Shown: positions 5,785 through 59,246 of the stretch, piece by piece | Position numbering within the stretch: position 1 is the first letter of the stretch | Layout: each line of letters begins with the position of its first letter | Origin: an uncultured Candidatus Saccharibacteria bacterium | Lineage (GTDB): Bacteria; Patescibacteriota; Minisyncoccia; Phycocordibacterales; PALSA-1337 | Direction: 5' to 3' | Assembly (NCBI GenBank): GCA_964495685.1 | Contig: CAZBVQ010000001.1 | Coordinates: 297,521-361,520, forward strand | DNA: 64,000 nt | Notes under the pieces: generated by a model | Databases searched by the model: none | Told to the model about the DNA's origin: nothing | Seen by the model: the letters and a program-made list of their open reading frames with translations, nothing else | Program-made: the position numbers and the translations under genes

Positions 5785-5803
5785 TTCCAGGCCGGGCCTG
5801 GAA
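5785..5803. repeat. palindrome TTCCAGGCCGGGCCTGGAA (variant of the 17-bp palindrome family)
   Basis: Perfect 19-bp palindrome lying immediately 3' of the dnaE stop codon. Confidence 0.8.
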
Positions 5804-8800
5804 TTACAACGCCCTCAATCGCTCAAGTAGGAAACTTTTCTCACCGTTGCGTGTATTTACAGTCGCTTTTATGGCTACGCACTTGTCAGGAGCGATCAAT
5901 GAATGAAATTCTTTGTACACACGAGGGAATGCCACCGCCTCAGCTGAGCCAGAGAAGTCTTGGACAGTGACGAATGCCATAGTCTCATTTTTCTTTGTTT
6001 GAATCTCACGAACTTCAGTAATGATGCCAGCGAAAATGGTGGTCGCACCCTCCTTGATAGTCTCAAATGCTTTCTTGATATCCATTCCATTTTTTGTGAT
6101 GACCTCACGGTATCGTTCGAGTGGATGGCCGGAAATGTACAAGCCCAGCAACTCTTTTTCCCAGGCAAGCTTGTCACGCATTTCTGCAGGAGGTACATCT
6201 GCAAGTCGCAGTGTAGGTACGCTCGAGGTATCGGTCATGCCGCCGAACAAGGAATCCTGGTCTGCATGTTGTTTACTGTTTTCCTTGTTGTATTCGAGCA
6301 TAAGGTCAAGGTTGGCGAGCATGACGCCACGGTCGACACCGAAACAGTCCATGGCACCAGCTTTGATGAGAGATTCGAGAGATTTTTTGTTGAGATTCTT
6401 GTCTTTGACGCGGTCTAGGAAATTGGATAATGACGTGAATGTGCCAGCACGCTTTCGTTCCTCGATGATGGCTGTCGAGATGCCTTGACCGAAGTTCTTG
6501 ATGGTAACGAGACCGAAGCGGATGCGGTATCTGGGAACGTCAGGAGGATATGTCTCCTCAGCGAACGGCGTCGGCTTCTGCTGAAGCCGCGCCTCATTCT
6601 CCCTCGCCTCCGCTCGGTCCGAAGGTCGCTTCGAAGACACATCCTCCTGACGTTCCTTGATTACCGTAAACTGACTGAAGCTCTCATTTACATCAGGAGG
6701 AAGTACTGGAATCCCGATACGCTTACATTCAGCGATTGTCTCGGCCACTTTCTCCGTATCGCCTTGCTCCGAGGTGAGTACGGCTGATAGATAAATTTCA
6801 GGGAAATGCGCCTTGAGGTATGCGGTGATATACGCCACACGACCATAAGATACCGAGTGGGCCTTGTTGAAACCGTAGGCTGCGAATGGCTCGATCCATT
6901 TCCAGACTTCTTTTGCCTTCTTTTCTGACCATTTGCTGTGTGAGATACATCCCTTGATGAACTTATCTTTTTGCAGTGCCATTTCCTCAGGGATCTTTTT
7001 ACCCACCGCTTTGCGGAATTTGTCGACTTCGCCCCAACTATATCCCGCGATCAGGTGCGCCATCATCAGGAGGTCGTCTTGATAGACAAGAATACCGTAG
7101 GTTTTGTCGAGAATTTTCTCGAGCATAGGGTCGAGATATGAAATGAGTGAGCGATCGTGTTTGCGCGCAATATAGTCAGGAATGAAGCCGATCGGACCAG
7201 GACGGTACAATGCCACCATGGCGTTGATGTCGTGAATGGTGCTTGGTTTGAGGTCTTTGAGGAATCGAGTCATACCATCACCGTTGAGCTGGAATAGGTC
7301 AGCAGTTTCACCACGAGCGAGCATTTCGAATGTCTTCTTGTCGTCTACCGGTATAGTGTCATAATCGACGTCCACACCGTCAATTTTCTTGATACGCTCG
7401 ATAGTGTCGGCGATGATGGTCAAGTTTTTGAGACCAAGGAAGTCGAATTTGAGCAGCCCGGCTTCTTCGATCGAATACATATCGTACTGGGTGATGATTT
7501 TGCCTTCGCCCTTGGGATCAAACTGGAGCGGCGTATAGTCGGTCAATGACGAAGGTGAGATGACCACGCCCGCAGCATGCACACCGATGTGTCGTGCACA
7601 ACCTTCGATCTTGCGAGCCATGTCAATAATGCGTCGCGTGTCAGGTTCAGTGTCGTAGGCGCTCTTGAGTTCGGGAGTCTCTTGAAGTGCGCGCTCAATG
7701 GTCATAGGGAAGCCTTGAGAGCCCATGGGAATGAGTTTGGAAATACGGTCACCGACATCATAAGGGAAACCCATAGCACGAGCTACGTCACGGACTGAAC
7801 CGCGAGCAGCCATAGTACCGAACGTACCGATCTGCGCCACTTTGTCTGCACCGTATTTGCGTCGGACATAGTCGATGACTTCGTCGCGTCTATCGTCGGC
7901 ATAGTCCATATCGATATCGGGAGCTGAGGGACGATCAGGGTTGAGGAAGCGCTCGAAGGGGATTTCGTATTCGATGGGGTTGATATTGGTGATACCTGCC
8001 AAGAAGGTGACCAACGAACCAGAGACGGAGCCACGAATATTTGAGAGGATTTTATTCTCGCGAGCGAAGCGGAGCATGTCTGCCACGACCAGGAAGTAGG
8101 GAGCATATCCTTTGTCTCGAATGACTTTCAGCTCATATTCAGCACGTTTGACGAGGTCGTCAGTTTTGGGGACATTGCGTCGAGCAAATCCCTCGAAGAC
8201 GATATGGTGAAGCTCATCGTCGGCGCTTCGACCGCTCTCTACCTTCAAGGCTGGAAATACCCATTTGCCCAGCTCGAGTTTCAAGTTGCATGCGTCGACA
8301 ATTTTCTGAGTATTTTCGAGTGCTTCAGGCATGTCATGGAAGAGTTCCTCGGCACGCTCGGCGGAAATAAATGAAAAATCATCTTCGTCACTATCTGATA
8401 TTTTGTCAGAGGAATCACTGTGTGAGTTGACGCGTACGAGTGTCTCACGAGCGAAACGATCGTCCGGGTTGAGGTAGTAGACGTCATGTGCAGCCATGAC
8501 AGGAATCTCTTGTTTCTTGGCGAATTGCACCAGTGTCTTCATGGTAGATTCGTGACCATCGATCTCGGGGTGGCGCGTGATTTCAAGGTAGAGACGGTCT
8601 GTTTCTAGGCCGGGCCTAGAAAATACTTTCTTGTAGAATGTCGCGATCTCAGTGGCTTTCTCTTGATTCCTGCCGCCAAGTGCGTGGACTATTTCGCCGG
8701 AGAATGACGGCATGATGCAGATGAGACCCTCATTATATTTCTCAATGAGTTCACGGTCGATGCGTGGCTTGTAGTAGAAGCCTTCGAGGTGAGAGATGGT

Positions 8801-9118
8801 AACGAGTTGGACGAGGTTGCGGTAGCCGGTTTCATTCATAGCCAGAAGGACGAGACGACTGCGTCGATTGTCGATACCGGGCTGCATGTCTTTCCTGGAA
8901 CGTGCGGCTACATAGAAATCGACGCCAATGATTGGTTTGAGCTCTTTTTTCTGGCAGGCCTTGTAGAATTCGATGGCGCCGTAAAGGTTGCCGTTGTCGG
9001 TGAGGGCCAAGGCATTCATGCCATGTTTCTTGGCAGCCGCGACTAGATCGTCGATCTTGGGCAGGGCAGAAAGGAGGGAATAGTGGGAGTGGGTGTGGAG
9101 GTGGGCGAACAGGCTCAT
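5804..9118 (-). CDS. dnaE: DNA polymerase III alpha subunit
   Basis: 1104 aa; N-terminal PHP domain (HLHTHSHYSLL), polymerase core and OB-fold regions typical of DnaE. Confidence 0.95.
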   Translation of the reverse strand: MSLFAHLHTHSHYSLLSALPKIDDLVAAAKKHGMNALALTDNGNLYGAIEFYKACQKKELKPIIGVDFYVAARSRKDMQPGIDNRRSRLVLLAMNETGYRNLVQLVTISHLEGFYYKPRIDRELIEKYNEGLICIMPSFSGEIVHALGGRNQEKATEIATFYKKVFSRPGLETDRLYLEITRHPEIDGHESTMKTLVQFAKKQEIPVMAAHDVYYLNPDDRFARETLVRVNSHSDSSDKISDSDEDDFSFISAERAEELFHDMPEALENTQKIVDACNLKLELGKWVFPALKVESGRSADDELHHIVFEGFARRNVPKTDDLVKRAEYELKVIRDKGYAPYFLVVADMLRFARENKILSNIRGSVSGSLVTFLAGITNINPIEYEIPFERFLNPDRPSAPDIDMDYADDRRDEVIDYVRRKYGADKVAQIGTFGTMAARGSVRDVARAMGFPYDVGDRISKLIPMGSQGFPMTIERALQETPELKSAYDTEPDTRRIIDMARKIEGCARHIGVHAAGVVISPSSLTDYTPLQFDPKGEGKIITQYDMYSIEEAGLLKFDFLGLKNLTIIADTIERIKKIDGVDVDYDTIPVDDKKTFEMLARGETADLFQLNGDGMTRFLKDLKPSTIHDINAMVALYRPGPIGFIPDYIARKHDRSLISYLDPMLEKILDKTYGILVYQDDLLMMAHLIAGYSWGEVDKFRKAVGKKIPEEMALQKDKFIKGCISHSKWSEKKAKEVWKWIEPFAAYGFNKAHSVSYGRVAYITAYLKAHFPEIYLSAVLTSEQGDTEKVAETIAECKRIGIPVLPPDVNESFSQFTVIKERQEDVSSKRPSDRAEARENEARLQQKPTPFAEETYPPDVPRYRIRFGLVTIKNFGQGISTAIIEERKRAGTFTSLSNFLDRVKDKNLNKKSLESLIKAGAMDCFGVDRGVMLANLDLMLEYNKENSKQHADQDSLFGGMTDTSSVPTLRLADVPPAEMRDKLAWEKELLGLYISGHPLERYREVITKNGMDIKKAFETIKEGATTIFAGIITEVREIQTKKNETMAFVTVQDFSGSAEAVAFPRVYKEFHSLIAPDKCVAIKATVNTRNGEKSFLLERLRAL
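8604..8620. repeat. 17-bp palindrome TCTAGGCCGGGCCTAGA embedded in the dnaE coding sequence
   Basis: Exact copy of the palindrome found at 17493 and 32385; in frame it encodes SRPGLE of DnaE. Confidence 0.8.
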
Positions 9119-13538: not shown

Positions 13539-14441
13539 TTAGAGGGTATCTTTCGTATACATACGTGCCAACTCTTGGTTCAAGGAAGCCATCTTTTCTC
13601 TCTGGTGCATCTCATGAATGGCGCTACGAATAAGGGTTACCCCGAATACGACAGTGATAATCAAGAATCCGGCTCCAGTAAGGACTTCACGTGGGGTAGA
13701 GGATAATAAGATGCGGATGAGGATGGTGAGCCAGAGGGCGAATATGACAAGCTCGATAGTGAGAATGCGGATATTGAACAGGTGATGTTTCGTTATTGTA
13801 TACGTAATAAATACTAGGAATATGAGAAAACCCAAACTGTCTAACATTCCAGGAACTGGTATGGAGAAAAATGGAATTACAAAAGTCGTTAGGCCTGAAG
13901 CTATCAATGCTACTACAGTGCCCATTAAGATATATTTAAGTTGCGTCTTTTTAATTACGTTGTTTGCATTTTTTTGTCCCATGTAAAGATCTCTGATAAT
14001 CATTATTGCGTAGACTAAATAAAATATCGAATAAACGTATAAGCCGAGGGCAATATTATCGGTGGTTATATTTATGTCATAGACAGGAATAAATAATTTC
14101 ATCATGAATCCCTCTTTGAAACATAAAATCGCAAACACTAATCCGGTAGAGTAAATGGCGGTAGATTTTTTCCATGTTAACTTTTGGCCTACCAGCGTTT
14201 TTGTCCACACTAGCCCTGTTGATATTATGATCGCACCAAATGCGTACGAGGATATAAACCAGTATGCCGAATGCAGGATATGGGACATGAGTTCGGCGAA
14301 TGTCCACATTGCCGCCAAGATACTTAATAACGAAAATAATCGGCCGGTTAGGTCTTTCCTGTTTTGGGACAAAACAAAAACGCTTATTAACGTGTCACAA
14401 AAAATTATGATAACTAATAGGATGTTTATTAATTGTGTCAT
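13539..14441 (-). CDS. multi-TM membrane protein resembling the sensor module of the histidine kinase at 15864
   Basis: 300 aa, about 7 TM helices, ending LIRSAIHEMHQREKMASLNQELARMY, similar to LIRSVLKEVETREKIELLATDLQKA at the TM/HisKA junction of the downstream kinase; no kinase domain. Confidence 0.55.
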   Translation of the reverse strand: MTQLINILLVIIIFCDTLISVFVLSQNRKDLTGRLFSLLSILAAMWTFAELMSHILHSAYWFISSYAFGAIIISTGLVWTKTLVGQKLTWKKSTAIYSTGLVFAILCFKEGFMMKLFIPVYDINITTDNIALGLYVYSIFYLVYAIMIIRDLYMGQKNANNVIKKTQLKYILMGTVVALIASGLTTFVIPFFSIPVPGMLDSLGFLIFLVFITYTITKHHLFNIRILTIELVIFALWLTILIRILLSSTPREVLTGAGFLIITVVFGVTLIRSAIHEMHQREKMASLNQELARMYTKDTL

Positions 14442-14490
14442 AGGCGTGTGTGTGGATAAGGATACTTCTTTTGGTATATAATGTACACAT

Positions 14491-14883
14491 ATGATGCACT
14501 TCGGAGAACATTTAATGATTGATGGTTACGAAGCATCTTGCGGGTCTCTCGATAATCGGACGCTTGTTTTTGAGGTGCTCGATAAGTTGCCGGAAGAAAT
14601 GGGAATGAAGAAACTCTCTCCGCCCCAGGTTTTTTGGGCACCAGCAATAAGTAAAAAAGATTCTGGTGGATGGAGTGGTTTTGTGGTGATTCAAGAAAGC
14701 CACATAAGTATTCACACGTTTCCTCGACGTGGTTTCATTAGTGCAGACATATATACTTGTCAGAATAATATGGATACAGAAAAGGTTCAGAAATATCTCC
14801 GGAAAGCGTTCAGTATTAAGGATATGGAAATTAATTTCGTCAAACGGGGGACGAAATATCCAGAAAAAGACCTATATTCATAG
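14491..14883 (+). CDS. speH: S-adenosylmethionine decarboxylase proenzyme (class 1B, pyruvoyl-dependent)
   Basis: ESHISIHTFP self-cleavage/pyruvoyl serine motif and ADIYTC motif; 130 aa. Confidence 0.85.
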   Translation: MMHFGEHLMIDGYEASCGSLDNRTLVFEVLDKLPEEMGMKKLSPPQVFWAPAISKKDSGGWSGFVVIQESHISIHTFPRRGFISADIYTCQNNMDTEKVQKYLRKAFSIKDMEINFVKRGTKYPEKDLYS

Positions 14884-14917
14884 TGGGTAATATACTAAAG
14901 ATAATGGGGGTGGTACA

Positions 14918-15862
14918 ATGGGTCCTATAAAGATCATCTCGATGGACCAATTTTTTTTAGCTATACATGATATCAGTGATAAGTTAGCGCAAACTTATAA
15001 TTTAGATGTCGGGGCCTTCTTTTGGATTTACGTTACTTCAATTGGACCAATTTATGTCGGTGTTTTTCTTATACTTCGTGGGAGCACGCGTAAACTAACT
15101 TGGCGGGATATCTTTAAGTTTCAGTTAGGAGATGGTTTTCAGTTTACAAATCAGACCTGGTTAGGGCTTGCTATTCATGTGTTTGGATGGCTCATGCCCT
15201 ACCTTTACATATTTGTGTACGGTAAGAATCTTCCTGCGTGGTCATATGTTGTCGTTATTATAATTGTAGGGATCTCATTCTTGACCTTGATTAAGAAGAT
15301 GAATCATCGTAAGAAAAAAGTTATTACACAAGGATTAGATATAGTGAAGATGACGATGATCAATGATTCAGTAAAGGGCGACATTCTTTGGGAGATATAT
15401 GATAAGACCTTTGAACCTGTCAATGAGATTAGTCCTTGTAGGCAGAGTCTTGACAGGGATCACTTTTTCGAGATTTTGACCAATTTGACTGTTACTAAGT
15501 ATCTTTTAATAAAAGAAGGCGTTGGTATTATCGGACTTGCATTAATCACTAACGATCTCAAGAATACTCAGTGGATTAGTCCTGATTATTTCCGTGTAAA
15601 TTTTCCTAGTGAATATCAAAAGAATCTGGTCTATTATTTCATGGGTATTGCTATAAAAAATGAATTTAGAGGAAATAGGTATTCTATTTTGCTTATAGAA
15701 CGAGTTATTGACGATTTGCCCAAGGAAGCCATTATGGGTTTTGATCACTCCAAAAATATTAATCCAATGCTTCATCACTTTACGCAAATAGTCCGTCAAG
15801 CACAAGAGATCAAAAGGAAGCACATTGATCGGCAACATTACCATATTGTTTCTCGAAAATAA
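14918..15862 (+). CDS. hypothetical membrane protein
   Basis: 314 aa, about 3-4 N-terminal TM helices plus soluble C-terminal domain of unknown function; AT-rich. Confidence 0.5.
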   Translation: MGPIKIISMDQFFLAIHDISDKLAQTYNLDVGAFFWIYVTSIGPIYVGVFLILRGSTRKLTWRDIFKFQLGDGFQFTNQTWLGLAIHVFGWLMPYLYIFVYGKNLPAWSYVVVIIIVGISFLTLIKKMNHRKKKVITQGLDIVKMTMINDSVKGDILWEIYDKTFEPVNEISPCRQSLDRDHFFEILTNLTVTKYLLIKEGVGIIGLALITNDLKNTQWISPDYFRVNFPSEYQKNLVYYFMGIAIKNEFRGNRYSILLIERVIDDLPKEAIMGFDHSKNINPMLHHFTQIVRQAQEIKRKHIDRQHYHIVSRK

Positions 15863-15863
15863 C

Positions 15864-17486
15864 ATGTTGTTCAGTAATATTTTTTCAGTTACAACTCTGA
15901 CGCTAAGTTTTTTGTTAGGGTTTTACGTGTACTTAAATGATAGTAAAAATAGAATTAATCAATCATTCATTTTTCTAACTTTTGGAGCAATGATGTGGAT
16001 ATTTGCTAATCTGATGACGGATATTTCTAATGACCTTGCGTTTGTGGATCTGTGGAGCAAGGTTACCATGATAGGCCCTATATTCTTTTCGTACTTCTTC
16101 TATAGACTTTCACTATATTTTCCGAAAGAAAAGATACAAATAAAAAAGAAGCAGCATGAACTCGTTCTTACAATTTTGACGGCGATATTTCTTGTCCTTA
16201 TTCCAACTCGTCTCAATATAAGGAATGTCTATATTGGAGGGAATGGTTTTCCTGAAATTGTAGCCGGGCCTTTGTATATATTTGCCCTGGCTTTTTTTCT
16301 GTATCTAATCATCACGGCACTCAGAAATATTTTTTCTGGCTACAAAAACTTTGACTCGCTCCAACGTCGTCAGGTTCAATATATATCGTTCGGATTGGGA
16401 TTTTTCGTCTTTTTGGGTTCAATGACGAATGCAGTTTTACCCGTCCTAGGAAATTCTCAATTAGTTAATTTTGGACCATATTCTATAATTATATTTATTA
16501 TTTTTACTTCCTACGCGATCATAAGGTTCAAGATGTTTGATATCAAAGTCGTTGTCACGCAATTACTAGTCTATACTTTGTGGATATTTGTTCTAATAAG
16601 AGTTTTGTTGAGTGAAACGGCTCAGGACGGATATACGAATGGGGTCCTTCTCGTCCTCTTAGTCATCACCGGCATCTTCCTTATCCGATCAGTCCTTAAG
16701 GAAGTGGAAACTCGCGAAAAAATCGAACTTCTCGCCACTGACCTCCAGAAAGCCAATGACCGACTCACTGAGCTCGATCGTCAGAAGTCGGAGTTCGTGT
16801 CGTTCGCTACTCATCAGCTCCGTGCACCACTGACCGCTATGAAGGGCTACGCCTCTCTCATTCTCGAAGGGGATATGGGTCAAGTCGCTCCTCAAGCCAA
16901 GGATGCCGTCGGCAGAATATTCGAATCCACCAACACACTGACCAATATCGTTGATGATTACTTGAATGTCACACGCATCGAATTGGGCACCATGAAATAC
17001 GCTTTCGAGACCATGGATTTGAAGACACTTATCGAAGATGTTATCGCCGAACTCAAACCGAATATCGACAAGGCGACAGGTGTCAAATTCATATTTGGTG
17101 CTGAAGATATACATGGAGATTATCGTATCACTGCTGATCGCGACAAACTCAAGCAGGTGATCGCTAATCTCATCGATAACTCAATCAAATATACTCCGAA
17201 GGGATCTGTCGGTGTTTCACTGTCGTTCAATCGCAGCAAGCACAAGTTCATCTTCATGCTCAAGGATACAGGCATCGGTATTGCGCCAGAAACATTGCCG
17301 CATCTGTTCAACAAGTTTACTCGTGCAGGCAACGCAAACAAGACCAATATCAAAGGTACCGGTCTTGGCCTATTCGTGGCAAAAGAAATTATTACGGCAC
17401 ACCATGGTGTTATTCGTGCCGAATCAGAAGGGGAAGGGAAGGGTTCGACATTTATTGTGGAGTTGGAGCCATTTGCGAAAGTATAG
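15864..17486 (+). CDS. sensor histidine kinase (multi-TM sensor, HisKA, HATPase_c)
   Basis: About 7 TM helices, H-box SEFVSFATHQLRAPLTAMKGY, N/G boxes (LIDNSIKYT, DTGIGI, GTGLGLFVAKEI); start at ATG 15864 directly after the upstream stop; no adjacent response regulator. Confidence 0.9.
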   Translation: MLFSNIFSVTTLTLSFLLGFYVYLNDSKNRINQSFIFLTFGAMMWIFANLMTDISNDLAFVDLWSKVTMIGPIFFSYFFYRLSLYFPKEKIQIKKKQHELVLTILTAIFLVLIPTRLNIRNVYIGGNGFPEIVAGPLYIFALAFFLYLIITALRNIFSGYKNFDSLQRRQVQYISFGLGFFVFLGSMTNAVLPVLGNSQLVNFGPYSIIIFIIFTSYAIIRFKMFDIKVVVTQLLVYTLWIFVLIRVLLSETAQDGYTNGVLLVLLVITGIFLIRSVLKEVETREKIELLATDLQKANDRLTELDRQKSEFVSFATHQLRAPLTAMKGYASLILEGDMGQVAPQAKDAVGRIFESTNTLTNIVDDYLNVTRIELGTMKYAFETMDLKTLIEDVIAELKPNIDKATGVKFIFGAEDIHGDYRITADRDKLKQVIANLIDNSIKYTPKGSVGVSLSFNRSKHKFIFMLKDTGIGIAPETLPHLFNKFTRAGNANKTNIKGTGLGLFVAKEIITAHHGVIRAESEGEGKGSTFIVELEPFAKV

Positions 17487-17492
17487 CTACAT

Positions 17493-17509
17493 TCTAGGCC
17501 GGGCCTAGA
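17493..17509. repeat. 17-bp palindrome TCTAGGCCGGGCCTAGA
   Basis: Perfect palindrome 7 nt after the histidine kinase stop codon. Confidence 0.8.
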
Positions 17510-17510
17510 A

Positions 17511-17555
17511 TAAAAAGCGGAGTGGTCACCTCGAGGGTGTCCACTCCATTGCTTT
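17511..17555. terminator. bidirectional terminator
   Basis: GGAGTGG-TCACCTCGAGGGTGT-CCACTCC hairpin; minus-strand reading is followed by GCTTTTTATT, plus-strand reading by ATTGCTTT. Confidence 0.65.
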
Positions 17556-17568
17556 GGTGATCTGGATG

Positions 17569-17841
17569 CTAGAGATCACTATCGGGAAGGCCGCCTGCCC
17601 ATGCGGGACGATCTCTCCAAGTCTTCTTCCGCGGCTGAGATCTCGGTATCTCAGACACAGGCGGAAGCTTCTTGAAGTTCAGCCTCATCTGGAACCCAAC
17701 GTGGTTGCCAGGAGTACCTACGGGAATACTGACTCGTTGCCCCGTGGTAACTTCGGTGGGCTGTACATCCGAAGAGGGCTCCTTACCGTTGAGAGATGCG
17801 TATATTCTAGCGAATGACGCAAGTCCTTTTTCGAGAGTCAT
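17569..17841 (-). CDS. unknown small protein (90 aa) with complete expression signals
   Basis: ATG preceded by GGAGG at 5-nt spacing; upstream TTGACT-N17-TGaTATAAT promoter (17899-17927); bidirectional terminator immediately after stop; product MTLEKGLASFARIYASLNGKEP... matches no family I recognise. Confidence 0.5.
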   Translation of the reverse strand: MTLEKGLASFARIYASLNGKEPSSDVQPTEVTTGQRVSIPVGTPGNHVGFQMRLNFKKLPPVSEIPRSQPRKKTWRDRPAWAGGLPDSDL

Positions 17842-17898
17842 TTGTTCCTCCGGCTGTAATGTGCCATGTCCACCTCGGACTACGCACGTTCGAATATC

Positions 17899-17927
17899 AT
17901 TATATCACCTAAAATAGAGAAAGTCAA
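17899..17927 (-). promoter_or_regulatory. sigma70-type promoter (TTGACT-N17-TATAAT with TG extension)
   Basis: Minus-strand reading TTGACTttctctattttaggTGaTATAAT about 55 nt upstream of the ATG at 17841. Confidence 0.6.
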
Positions 17928-17952
17928 TGCGTCGCAGTCAAACATACAAAAA

Positions 17953-17982
17953 ATGGCCCAAATGCGACCCATTTTGGGTGCC
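17953..17982 (-). terminator. rho-independent terminator of the GatB/YqeY gene
   Basis: CCCAAA-N-TTTGGG hairpin followed on the minus strand by CCATTTTTT. Confidence 0.6.
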
Positions 17983-18012
17983 TGTGGATAACTTTTTATG
18001 GGGGCAGGGGAG

Positions 18013-18474
18013 TTAGGCTTTGAGTTCTTCCTCTATGACCGCTTTGACATCGGCACCATCGGCCTTGCCGGCCAATTCTTTCATAATTACTCCCGTCAGT
18101 TTGCCGCCAGCTTTGGGGTCGAATGTGCCAGCCGACCTCAGCGCCTCGAATCGTGCACGGACGACAGTGCGTATCTCTTCCCTAGCCATCATAGTCGGCA
18201 GGAATGAGTTGAGGATGACGAGCTCGGCTTTCTCCTTGTCAGCAAGATCGGCTCGACCTCCCTTTTCGAATTGTTCGATCGAGTCCTTGCGTTGTTTGGC
18301 ACTGCGCTTGATCAGAGCGAGGACCTTCTCGTCTGGTAGGACTTCCCCAGTGAATCCGCTCGCGATGATCTCATTGGTACAGAGTGCATTGAGACCACGA
18401 AGCACTTCGAGGCGTAATGTATCCTTGGCGCGTAGAGCGTCCTTGATGCCGTCTTTGATGGTGGTATGTAACAT
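18013..18474 (-). CDS. GatB/YqeY domain-containing protein
   Basis: 153 aa; YqeY pattern (IKDALRAKD..RL..LR..NA...) across the full length. Confidence 0.85.
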   Translation of the reverse strand: MLHTTIKDGIKDALRAKDTLRLEVLRGLNALCTNEIIASGFTGEVLPDEKVLALIKRSAKQRKDSIEQFEKGGRADLADKEKAELVILNSFLPTMMAREEIRTVVRARFEALRSAGTFDPKAGGKLTGVIMKELAGKADGADVKAVIEEELKA

Positions 18475-20404: not shown

Positions 20405-20998
20405 ATGCCATACATCATCGCAGGTCTCGGTAATCCAGGTCCGGAATATGACGCTACACGTCACAACACAGGACGTATCATACTCGAAGCACTTCGTGCC
20501 GAGTATGCTGAGGACGATTTCAAGTACGACAAGAAGCTCAACGCACACGTCGCCAAAGGCAAAATCGGTAAGGAAACAGTGACGTTCGTTGCGCCAGACA
20601 CATTCATGAATAATTCAGGCAAGGCACTCGCCCCACTGGTCAAGAGTGTCAAAGCGGCTGAGAAGATGATTGTGATCTACGATGATTTCAACTTGCCTCT
20701 AGGTCGTATTCGTATCTCGTTCAATCGCAGCTCGGGTGGCCACAATGGTCTCGAATCCATCATCAAGTCGGTCAAGACAGAAGCATTCCCGCGTATTCGT
20801 ATCGGTGTCGCTCCCGAAAACGCAAAAGGCAACGCCAAGACGCCTCATGGCGATGAAAAAATCGAGAAATTCATTCTCGGTAAACTCAAAGATGAGGAAG
20901 TGAAAGAGCTCAAGAAAGTCACCAAGAATGTAGTCGCGGCCGTCGAGGTCATGGTGCGCGAAAGTCGTGAGAAGGCGATGAGTATGTACAACGCGTGA
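20405..20998 (+). CDS. pth: peptidyl-tRNA hydrolase
   Basis: Start MPYIIAGLGNPGPEYDATRHNTG (Pth signature GLGNPG...TRHN); 197 aa. Confidence 0.9.
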   Translation: MPYIIAGLGNPGPEYDATRHNTGRIILEALRAEYAEDDFKYDKKLNAHVAKGKIGKETVTFVAPDTFMNNSGKALAPLVKSVKAAEKMIVIYDDFNLPLGRIRISFNRSSGGHNGLESIIKSVKTEAFPRIRIGVAPENAKGNAKTPHGDEKIEKFILGKLKDEEVKELKKVTKNVVAAVEVMVRESREKAMSMYNA

Positions 20999-21045
20999 GC
21001 CTGCGAACGCAGCCGTGGTCGTATGACCGCAACGCGTGAGCCAAC

Positions 21046-32383: not shown

Positions 32384-32384
32384 T

Positions 32385-32401
32385 TCTAGGCCCGGCCTAG
32401 A
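32385..32401. repeat. 17-bp palindrome TCTAGGCCCGGCCTAGA
   Basis: Perfect palindrome 1 nt after the stop codon of the preceding gene; same family as 8604 and 17493. Confidence 0.8.
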
Positions 32402-32405
32402 AAAG

Positions 32406-32434
32406 TTTGACACCTACTTATCCACATGCTAGAC
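32406..32434 (+). promoter_or_regulatory. candidate promoter TTGACA-N17-TAGACT upstream of tuf
   Basis: Consensus -35 and 4/6 -10 hexamer about 200 nt upstream of the tuf ATG. Confidence 0.45.
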
Positions 32435-36027: not shown

Positions 36028-36885
36028 ATGAAATCATTCCGCCCTACATCAAAGTCTCGCCGCCACATGACTGTGCTGCCGTTCAAGCAGTATTTGACCG
36101 CCTCTGAGCCGTACAAGCCGCTTACGGTCGGCTTCAAGCGCGATGTTGGTCGCAATGCATTCGGTCGTATCACCGTCCGTCACAAGGGAGCAGGTCACAA
36201 GAAGCTCTATCGTATGATCGACTTCATGTATGACAAGCACGATATCATCGCTACCGTCAAAACAGTCGAGTACGATCCTTTCCGCACTGGTTACGTAGCA
36301 CTCGTGTCATACAATGATGGTACCAAGCGCTACATCCTTCTTCCGAAGACTATGAAGGTCGGCAACTCATTCATCGTCTCCGAAAAGGCTCCGATCCAGA
36401 CTGGCAATCGTCTTCCGCTCAAGAATATTCCTGTCGGTACATTTATTTACAATATCGAAATCAAGCCGGGCAGCGGTGCCAAGCTCGTCCGTTCAGGTGG
36501 TTCGTTCGCTCAAGTGATCGCAAACGATGCGGGTTATACTCACATCAAGATGCCTTCGACTGAGGTCCGTAAGATTCACGAGAATGCATGGGCTTCGATC
36601 GGTGCTGTCTCGAACGAAGAGAATCGTCTCGTCAATATCGGCAAAGCGGGCCGCTCACGCTGGATGGGTATTCGCCCGACAGTTCGTGGTACTGCTCAGA
36701 ACCCAGTAGATCACCCCTATGGTGGTGGTGAACAGCGCCAGGGTCGTGGTCTCCGCCGTCTCAAGACTCGCTGGGGTAAGCCAGCAGGTAAGGGTCAGAA
36801 GACTCGCGCTCCGAAGAAATATTCCAATGTCTTCATCGTCGCTCGTCGTCAGGTCGGCAAGAAGAAGGCAACTCCTACGCAGTAA
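36028..36885 (+). CDS. rplB: 50S ribosomal protein L2
   Basis: GRNAFGRITVRHKGAGHKK...; 285 aa. Confidence 0.95.
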   Translation: MKSFRPTSKSRRHMTVLPFKQYLTASEPYKPLTVGFKRDVGRNAFGRITVRHKGAGHKKLYRMIDFMYDKHDIIATVKTVEYDPFRTGYVALVSYNDGTKRYILLPKTMKVGNSFIVSEKAPIQTGNRLPLKNIPVGTFIYNIEIKPGSGAKLVRSGGSFAQVIANDAGYTHIKMPSTEVRKIHENAWASIGAVSNEENRLVNIGKAGRSRWMGIRPTVRGTAQNPVDHPYGGGEQRQGRGLRRLKTRWGKPAGKGQKTRAPKKYSNVFIVARRQVGKKKATPTQ

Positions 36886-58556: not shown

Positions 58557-59246
58557 CTACCACAGTTTGGGTCGGACTACCTTTATCTCTTCGAATAGGA
58601 TGATCATGATGACAACGCCACCCCAAATCCACGAAAACGTCCTCAGTGTGTCGCTCGCACTGGCTTCCATAATGGAGAGGTTGAATGAAGTGTGGATGAC
58701 GATCGCGGCGATGATACCGACGATGGCCGCAATAATCTTCGCCAGACGGCCGTGATAGAAGAAATACCCGATACAGAATCCTATAGTTGCAGAACTGACG
58801 ATATGGAGTAGGGTGGCACCGATGAATCTCATGTTTCCGGTGATGATACTGCGAGCGACCTCACCTCCTGAGAGTGGGTCCATGATGAAGAAGGCATTTT
58901 CGAGAGCTGAGAAGCCGAGTGCTACCACAATACAATAGATCATGGCGTCGATAGGCTCATCGTTTGCTTGTGAACGTAGCCCAATCACCGCTATGGCGAT
59001 GAATTTGAGAATTTCCTCAGTGGCTGCCCACAGTGTGTAGCGTATCGTGGGATCTGTATATAGGTCGGCAATGTATTTCTCAATAAACAACGCAGCGACG
59101 ACGGCTAGAATGCCACCGAAGAAACAGGCGACGAGGAGGGATCGTGGCTCGGGGTGTTGGCGGTCTTCACGGAGCCAGAAGAAGAGCCAGATGAGGGTGG
59201 GGAGGATGCCGGAAAGGAGAGCGTAGAGAAGAGCAGTAGCTGACAT
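58557..59246 (-). CDS. PrsW-family intramembrane metalloprotease
   Basis: Multi-TM; EExxK motif (ATEEILKF) and FxxxExxxF motif (GFSALENAFF) characteristic of PrsW/CPBP proteases. Confidence 0.6.
   Translation of the reverse strand: MSATALLYALLSGILPTLIWLFFWLREDRQHPEPRSLLVACFFGGILAVVAALFIEKYIADLYTDPTIRYTLWAATEEILKFIAIAVIGLRSQANDEPIDAMIYCIVVALGFSALENAFFIMDPLSGGEVARSIITGNMRFIGATLLHIVSSATIGFCIGYFFYHGRLAKIIAAIVGIIAAIVIHTSFNLSIMEASASDTLRTFSWIWGGVVIMIILFEEIKVVRPKLW

Follow-up and report, generated by a model that had tools for sequence, protein, structure and literature searches.

Our analysis indicates that the minus strand of the 64,000-nucleotide stretch of DNA studied here (the window) carries, between yqeY and a convergent histidine kinase gene, what is probably a monocistronic, lineage-restricted and fast-evolving gene for a small (90 amino acids), basic and largely disordered protein. 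The source organism is a Taylorbacteria-like Parcubacterium. Most likely, the gene is an orphan of the ordinary, lineage-specific kind, and neither a novel RNA nor a novel regulatory device. The case is carried by the conservation of the reading frame in two related species; the alternatives that had to be weighed against it are a structured small RNA, a functionless remnant or proto-gene, a leader peptide and a slot of gene turnover behind a conserved promoter.

A Complete Transcription Unit between yqeY and a Histidine Kinase Gene

The small gene exists as described, with a promoter, a 90-codon frame and a terminator. All of the elements reported in the sequence-only reading, namely the promoter, leader, GGAGG, ATG, open reading frame (ORF) and terminator, were located when the minus strand was read. 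In coordinates of the window, they are as follows, together with the hairpin that divides yqeY from the small gene.

17948..17978, minus strand: terminator-like hairpin of yqeY, CCCAAA…TTTGGG followed by CCATTTTTTG
17899..17927, minus strand: whole sigma-70–type promoter, 11 of 12 consensus matches plus TG
17927-17922, minus strand: −35 element TTGACT, with a 17-nt spacer to the −10 element
17907-17906 and 17904-17899, minus strand: extended −10 element, TG plus TATAAT (motif TGaTATAAT)
17842..17898, minus strand: 5′ leader of ∼50 nt, with transcription start predicted near 17891
17887-17861, minus strand: 5′-proximal leader hairpin, GUGC…GUCC-GAGGU-GGAC…GCAC
17851-17847, minus strand: GGAGG, then an AACAA spacer (5 nt) and ATG at 17841
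17569..17841, minus strand: 90-codon ORF, MTLEKGLASFARIYASLNGK…RKKTWRDRPAWAGGLPDSDL*, 90 amino acids plus TAG (17571-17569)
17511..17555, minus strand: intrinsic terminator with A-tract, 7+4 bp G+C-rich stem and U5

The promoter is the top promoter-like site in the part of the window between 15 and 21 kb and the single site in all 64 kb that matches TTGACn-N14/15-TGnTAnAAT. The terminator, AAAGC-AAU-GGAGUGG…CCACUCC-GCUUU followed by U5, was overlooked by a simple terminator scan because of its internal A·A mismatch; it could function in both directions. Because yqeY has its own hairpin plus T-run (the L005 counterpart of which is GCTCAAGATTGAGC-TATTTTTTG), the small gene forms a transcription unit of its own, served by a dedicated promoter and terminator, as had been proposed. 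Its mRNA would be made at a high level and stabilized by the 5′ hairpin and the terminator.

The downstream neighbor is a convergent 7TM histidine kinase gene on the plus strand, which ends at 17486. This arrangement bears on the suggestion, also made from the sequence alone, that the unit might be a leader peptide or a cis-acting riboregulator of a downstream gene. The only features that would suit such a role are the structured leader of ∼50 nt and the small ORF. However, an intrinsic terminator follows the ORF and faces the kinase, which is the next gene and lies on the other strand, so that there is no same-strand gene downstream, and the same order of terminator and convergent kinase is found in L005 and L006. 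Thus, gene order effectively refutes this explanation, the probability of which we consider close to nil.

The interval had been called a GC-rich gap. This holds relative to the AT-rich block on its left (30-40% GC, 14.0-16.6 kb) but not relative to the genes on its right, which the gap resembles at 51% GC. The low-GC block itself (positions 14000-16600, compared to about 50% elsewhere) spans an AdoMet-decarboxylase–like gene, an ORF of 314 aa that matches no Pfam model and the kinase's 7TM half, and GC content rises inside the histidine kinase gene itself.

Two Related Species Keep the Reading Frame

Relatives were gathered by a scan with the neighboring HisRS-like protein, which yielded 66 loci, all from Parcubacteria/Paceibacterota and many labeled Taylorbacteria. 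The location of yqeY downstream of the HisRS-like gene is kept in the closest loci only (77-85% identity). A homolog of the 90-aa product was found in just two other Taylorbacteria-like species (loci L005 and L006), at the same position downstream of yqeY, and both ORFs had already been annotated by independent gene callers as hypothetical (P0011 and P0012). A profile built from the three proteins finds those three alone among 5.8e9 clusters. At the DNA level, nhmmer aligned the window to L005 alone, and there at the two ends only. L007, the nearest sister, has neither promoter nor ORF and shows an 80-nt gap instead, an observation that counts against a small-protein gene.

The start codon of the window ORF aligns with the L005 ATG (start region ATGAC…GAAAAAG). 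The two ORFs are 273 and 204 nt long, a difference of 69 nt, or exactly 23 codons, and the L006 ORF has 81 codons and ends in the same GDL motif. Window and L005 DNA can be aligned at the promoter, leader, start and 3′ end, while the middle is unalignable and has large gaps. In the C-terminal tail, BLASTP found 14 of 28 residues identical between the window and L005 proteins (E=2e-4). When all frames were compared between these two loci, the ORF frame scored 54 compared to ≤31 in every other frame pair (p∼0.001 by shuffling), and the L005-L006 comparison scored 64, which 0 of 1000 shuffles reached. The window-L006 similarity is not significant directly, which also counts against a small protein; as L005 matches both, it bridges the family.

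The substitutions are of the kind expected in a protein gene. In the protein-guided alignment, identity at codon positions 1, 2 and 3 was 0.59, 0.61 and 0.38, the third position being least conserved, different codons were used at 17 of 28 identical residues, and pN was 0.38 compared to a pS of 0.79; aligning at the protein level biases these statistics towards a coding pattern, and they draw on just two informative pairs. Codon-usage log-odds, trained on the 51 long ORFs of the window, placed the ORF frame first of six with a score of −0.008, higher than 98-100% of windows taken off-frame from real genes. This value exceeds that of open-frame shuffles (p=0.02), yet ranks only at the 6th percentile among 90-codon windows of real genes. 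When this sequence is shuffled, an open 89-codon frame arises in 2.3% of cases. Counting against a small-protein gene, GC2 of the ORF is 0.51 compared to 0.40 genome-wide and its codon usage is atypical. Loss of the frame in related genomes, with synonymous and nonsynonymous changes equally frequent, had been named as the outcome that would refute a protein gene; instead, the frame is kept in two related species with protein-like substitutions, and the small-protein reading survives. Judged by these patterns, the 90-codon ORF probably encodes a real protein, though one under weak constraint.

Strain variation was also inspected. The near-identical L004 strain has 18 single-nucleotide differences (SNPs) flanking the unit and 0 in 17415-17967, which is weak evidence as the SNPs are clustered. 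Differences from L002, L003 and L004 (17045-18241 and 19124-22123) are strongly clustered among these near-identical contigs: for example, 17330-17414 holds 8 SNPs and 18133-18139 holds 4, and the patch at 20986-21042 is rich in indels. This pattern suggests recombination tracts rather than uniform mutation, and SNPs confined to such tracts make their absence from the small gene weakly informative on selection.

A Probable Small, Basic Protein with Conserved Ends

Among the three homologs, the conserved N-terminal part reads M-T-x-E-K, followed by a helix segment, F-A-x-x-x-A-x-x-N/R-G, and the conserved C-terminal tail reads R-K-K…W-G-x(2-5)-[LQ]-P-x-[GS]-D-L. The C-terminal third, which had been described as low-complexity, is in fact the best-conserved segment of the protein. 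The middle is indel-rich and replaced by indels in multiples of three. AlphaFold, run with the three-sequence alignment, gave a mean pLDDT of 56 and a pTM of 0.19, with no confident fold and only an amphipathic helix at residues 4-17; the protein is thus predicted to be largely disordered. It is basic (13 K/R compared to 8 D/E) and has no hydrophobic stretch. From the combination of basic character, disorder and lack of a hydrophobic segment, we infer a small protein that binds a partner, in preference to an enzyme, membrane peptide or secreted product, and this is our best guess for its function. The protein may act by binding its partner through the conserved C-terminal tail and the N-terminal helix, not as an enzyme, and its basic stretch could touch nucleic acid.

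Searches against Known Proteins and RNAs

The claim that the product matches no known family was borne out by Pfam, PHROG, NCBIfam, PADLOC, PDB and phmmer searches. Pfam-A, PHROGs, NCBIfam, PADLOC and PDB sequences gave no significant match (best E-values of 0.42-8). The exact protein is present on five near-identical contigs (the species occurs in samples SRR6747782, SRR12487045, DRR685536 and DRR274959), and a word-seeded search of 5.8e9 clusters returned only the protein itself. Exhaustive phmmer against 1.84e9 representatives returned the protein and two tandem-repeat proteins, P0002 and P0003. P0002 (eukaryote-like, E=1.5e-7; 1266 aa with ∼7 Drc1-Sld2 repeats) was rejected as a repeat-inflated match: its score adds up seven weak stretches aligned to residues 3-29 of the 90-aa product, L005 does not conserve the residues concerned, and the product itself matches no Pfam model. 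P0003 likewise consists of tandem repeats. A phage origin was discarded, with no match in PHROGs or by tblastn to 50,697 phage records, as were a defense system, with no PADLOC match, and a type I toxin or small membrane protein, with no hydrophobic transmembrane segment in the 90-aa sequence.

The strong promoter, the terminator and the length of ∼380 nt brought RNase P, tmRNA, 6S and SRP RNAs under suspicion. Rfam 15 covariance models, run on the whole window at gathering thresholds, identified 5 tRNAs and nothing else. At E≤10, the region 17400-18100 gave just noise, with scores of 21 bits for sraA against a threshold of 56 and of 16 bits for a viral CITE against a threshold of 80. The relatives gave no match at gathering or permissive thresholds, and ARAGORN found no tmRNA in the window. 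These blanks, in the window and its relatives, rule out the known noncoding RNAs that were suspected, and the covariance-model scan that had been called for assigned the transcript to no Rfam family.

The GGAGG Motif Says Little about Translation

The textbook Shine-Dalgarno (SD) sequence that had been described is present as a GGAGG motif, but it is not meaningful in this genome. None of the 51 long ORFs of the window has an upstream GGAGG, and just 5 of the 51 have any 4-mer SD core at −20 to −4. The ribosomal-protein genes L2, L3, L4, S3 and L5 were searched for an upstream SD, and none was found. Examples in the window of the start-site features described here and in the next paragraph are the gene starts at 36028, 37853, 40093 and 34935 and the stretches 58557-59246 and 5804-9118. 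Judged from these upstream regions, genes of the source genome do not appear to use SD sequences; the 16S 3′ end lies outside the window. Among Parcubacteria, no more than 48% are reported to have the anti-SD motif (PMC9297842). In a genome the genes of which lack an SD, GGAGG is weak evidence for translation of the small ORF.

A −10–like hexamer lies 4-12 nt before the ATG in 8 of 30 genes, compared to 4.1 ± 1.8 expected, a pattern suggesting that some mRNAs of the source genome may be leaderless. In several genes, a TATAAT-like box stands only 6-9 nt before the ATG. Translation of the small ORF would not depend on an SD and would begin in an A-rich context at ATG 17841. More generally, a "perfect" SD is not evidence of translation in this Parcubacterium, and gene calling, whether automated or visual, should weigh the motif accordingly.

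RNA Structure in the Transcript

The leader hairpin (17887-17861) is kept in L005 with one compensatory pair, C-G to U-A, and the terminator hairpin has 12 consensus pairs, 2 of which are kept by compensatory double changes in L005. Over ungapped columns, the promoter, leader and 3′ end are 66-77% identical between the window and L005 (66% for the leader), compared to 39% for the coding middle. Ends that are better conserved than the coding middle are unusual for a protein gene, and we count this against the small-protein reading. When folding was compared with shuffled sequences, the whole transcript gave z=−2.8 for the window and −4.5 for L005, compared to +0.09 for a coding control, yqeY. 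Folding of the coding sequence (CDS) alone was inconsistent across the orthologs (−1.42 in the window, −3.7 in L005 and −1.30 in L006).

These data are relevant to an alternative in which the unit encodes a structured noncoding or dual-function small RNA of ∼380 nt, the 5′ hairpin and 3′ end being functional and the ORF incidental or secondary. The better-conserved ends, the three compensatory pairs in leader and terminator, the folding of the whole transcript, the folding of the L005 CDS alone and the lack of SD use in the source genome would all agree with this possibility. It is opposed by the Rfam result, which stayed at noise even at E≤10, by the unremarkable folding of the CDS in the window and L006, and by features not expected of an RNA, namely amino acid similarity specific to the ORF frame, indels of 3n length, a conserved ATG and decay at third positions. 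A further point against it comes from the leader motif, GTAGTCCGNNGTGGACAT(NNCAC), which occurs nowhere else in metagenome or viral scans beyond chance. Specifically, the metagenome scan gave one match, inside a high-GC permease gene, and the viral scan gave ten matches in unrelated contexts with no nhmmer extension; all of these are chance matches. We consider a small RNA unlikely.

Under the preferred reading, that of a protein gene, the leader hairpin would have a simple role. Stem-loops at the 5′ end stabilize mRNAs, as in the leaders of Escherichia coli ompA and Bacillus subtilis aprE. The 5′-proximal hairpin is, by analogy, most simply viewed as an mRNA stabilizer. Like those stem-loops, it is near the 5′ end, with a predicted distance of ∼4 nt, and a compensatory change preserves it in L005; the transcription start is here a prediction from the position of the −10 element.

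A Conserved Promoter Slot Downstream of yqeY

A promoter of the form TTGAC(T/A), 17/18-nt spacer and TGnTAnAAT is found at the same place after yqeY in ten relatives, which include L005, L006, L008, L009, L010, L024, L073 and L074; nine were found by a pattern scan and the tenth, L065, by eye, as it has a weaker −35 element (TTAGCA). The small gene occupies a conserved promoter slot, the content of which differs between species.

L005 and L006: a single small ORF of the window type
L024/L075: a different, 86-aa ORF
L008/L073, L009, L010, L065 and L074: two or three small ORFs

Shuffling tests and hhalign revealed no significant homology between the other first ORFs of the slot and the window type. 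The best pair was L006 and the first ORF (ORF1) of L009, with p=0.014 and an hhalign E-value of 0.056 over 12 columns. The second ORFs (ORF2) form a family with an N-terminal motif, GELFPGxW-x-DD-x-CHG-x-x-GQKYPE, and a C-terminal motif, WW…EE-x-x-x-GDWD. It comprises 7 clusters among 5.8e9, is always located downstream of yqeY in this Parcubacteria clade, and is a real but very rare and uncharacterized family. Its members are located as follows.

L009, 4172-4654: ORF2
L010, 4247-4660: ORF2
L065, 8219-8602: ORF2
L073, 1556-2077: ORF2
L074, 926-1465: ORF2
L008, 8271-8579: ORF2, truncated
L024, 7894-8151: ORF2, truncated

The L024 ORF is a short member of this family, and the L008 ORF2 is N-terminally truncated compared to its near-identical relative L073. 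The ORF2 genes have SD-like GAAAGGA motifs before their starts, and AlphaFold of the family gave a poor model, with a pLDDT of 55. Membership of the window ORF in the ORF2 family was rejected (hhalign probability of 0.05%), and tblastn of the ORF2 proteins on the window detected no ORF2 remnant. In L072 (4660-5478), a nucleotidyltransferase/HepT-like toxin-antitoxin pair takes the place of the histidine kinase after the slot.

In a neighbor-joining tree of the HisRS-like protein, the window, L005, L006, L024 and L007 form one subclade, to which the genomes with ORF1+ORF2 are the sister clade. On this tree, the window-type gene either is a first ORF that diverged strongly or came in as a replacement; in the L024/L007 branch, it has been lost or replaced. 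As the slot holds unrelated small ORFs in sister species, the window gene is dispensable and evolves fast.

The same observations raise the possibility that the unit is still transcribed but has no function, as a remnant or proto-gene under little selection, either the decayed first gene of an ancestral two-gene cassette or a recent de novo ORF. The strong, conserved promoter after yqeY would then continue to fire as the sequence downstream of it changes. The ten promoters are followed by ORFs without detectable homology. The sister clade has the ORF1+ORF2 pair, L024 only a truncated ORF of the ORF2 type, L008 a truncated one and L007 nothing, and the window ORF has atypical codon usage, disorder and large indels. 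However, start, frame and C-terminal motif persist in three species with many synonymous differences, pN is below pS and the window holds no ORF2 remnants. Moreover, as the neighboring proteins are merely ∼82% identical to those of L005, neutral DNA should be unalignable at this distance. We regard a functionless remnant as unlikely, though slightly less so than a small RNA.

A bolder proposal is that the slot, with DnaA boxes flanking its promoter and a histidine kinase gene beside it, is one of promoter-anchored gene turnover, in which selection keeps the promoter while small ORFs are born, replaced and lost. The ORF would then encode either a recently born protein, de novo or radically diverged in origin, or a modulator of the adjacent kinase that resembles Sda and is timed by DnaA. 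We hold this to be improbable. If true, it would provide a rare datable case of small-gene origination or a coupling of cell cycle to signaling in an episymbiotic CPR bacterium. In any case, the slot downstream of yqeY combines a conserved promoter with nonhomologous cargo (window type, L024 type, ORF1+ORF2 or nothing) and offers a compact natural series for the study of small-gene decay, fusion and origin in reduced genomes.

DnaA Boxes and a Repeated Palindrome around the Gene

The sequence TTATCCACA, a perfect match to the DnaA-box consensus, lies 56 nt upstream of the −35 element, just past the yqeY stop. Three perfect boxes are present in 64 kb, compared to 0.49 expected. A 19-nt perfect palindrome, TTCTAGGCCGGGCCTAGAA, lies between the terminator and the histidine kinase stop (17486). 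Its general form, TTCTAGGCC(S)GGCCTAGAA, has 4 copies in the window, compared to 0 expected.

17983..17991, minus strand: perfect DnaA box upstream of the small gene
14451-14459, minus strand: perfect DnaA box
32418-32426, plus strand: perfect DnaA box
17492..17510: palindrome next to the small-gene terminator
5785-5803, 8603-8621 and 32384-32402: other palindrome copies

Boxes are found at the same spot in relatives, two in L007 (7715-7760), two in L024 (7742-7793) and one in L074 (204-212); the paired boxes, GTTATCCACA, are about 35 nt apart. L005 has two inverted boxes with 1 mismatch at this place. L007 keeps its DnaA boxes though the small gene is absent, and a link between the box at 17983..17991 and the small gene is uncertain. 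The box at 32418-32426, upstream of tuf, follows a palindrome copy at a distance of 16 nt. The palindrome copy at 5785 has two mirrored stem mismatches (T>C and A>G) and is still perfect (TTCCAGG…CCTGGAA). The palindrome is absent from the loci of all other species; it looks like a species-specific, REP-like intergenic hairpin.

Comparison with Known Systems

The Sda protein of B. subtilis is a small, DnaA-activated inhibitor of the sporulation histidine kinases KinA and KinB (PMC12112137). Similar to sda, the gene described here is small and stands alone, a DnaA-box consensus precedes its promoter and a histidine kinase gene adjoins it, and its product would plausibly act by protein binding. 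Unlike Sda, the product has no sequence similarity to that protein (and no Pfam match of any kind), the window has one DnaA box at this place rather than a cluster, and the kinase neighborhood is common to species with unrelated small ORFs or with none. With no homology, a single box, boxes retained in L007 and a kinase that does not covary with the small gene, a DnaA-controlled anti-kinase of the Sda type was rejected, and we view the likeness as an analogy only.

A second comparison is with dual-function small RNAs. SR1/SR1P of B. subtilis (PMC8501984) is, like the unit studied here, a short, structured and independently transcribed RNA that contains a small ORF. The small-gene transcript also shares with dual-function RNAs untranslated ends that are better conserved than much of the ORF. 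It differs from them in having no identified target complementarity or RNA family, and in the structure of its CDS, which is not consistently significant across the three orthologs.

The gene is most akin to the lineage-specific small proteins (<100 aa) of CPR/Patescibacteria, which similarly belong to no family, occur in few species, are basic and predicted to be disordered, and are annotated as hypothetical in relatives. Should the protein be real, the large unexplained fraction of CPR proteomes would grow by one more small, lineage-specific protein, a modest gain. Two features set it apart from other hypothetical small proteins of CPR bacteria: the unusually complete and strong transcription signals of a gene of 90 codons, and its location in a positionally conserved promoter slot, the coding content of which differs between species.
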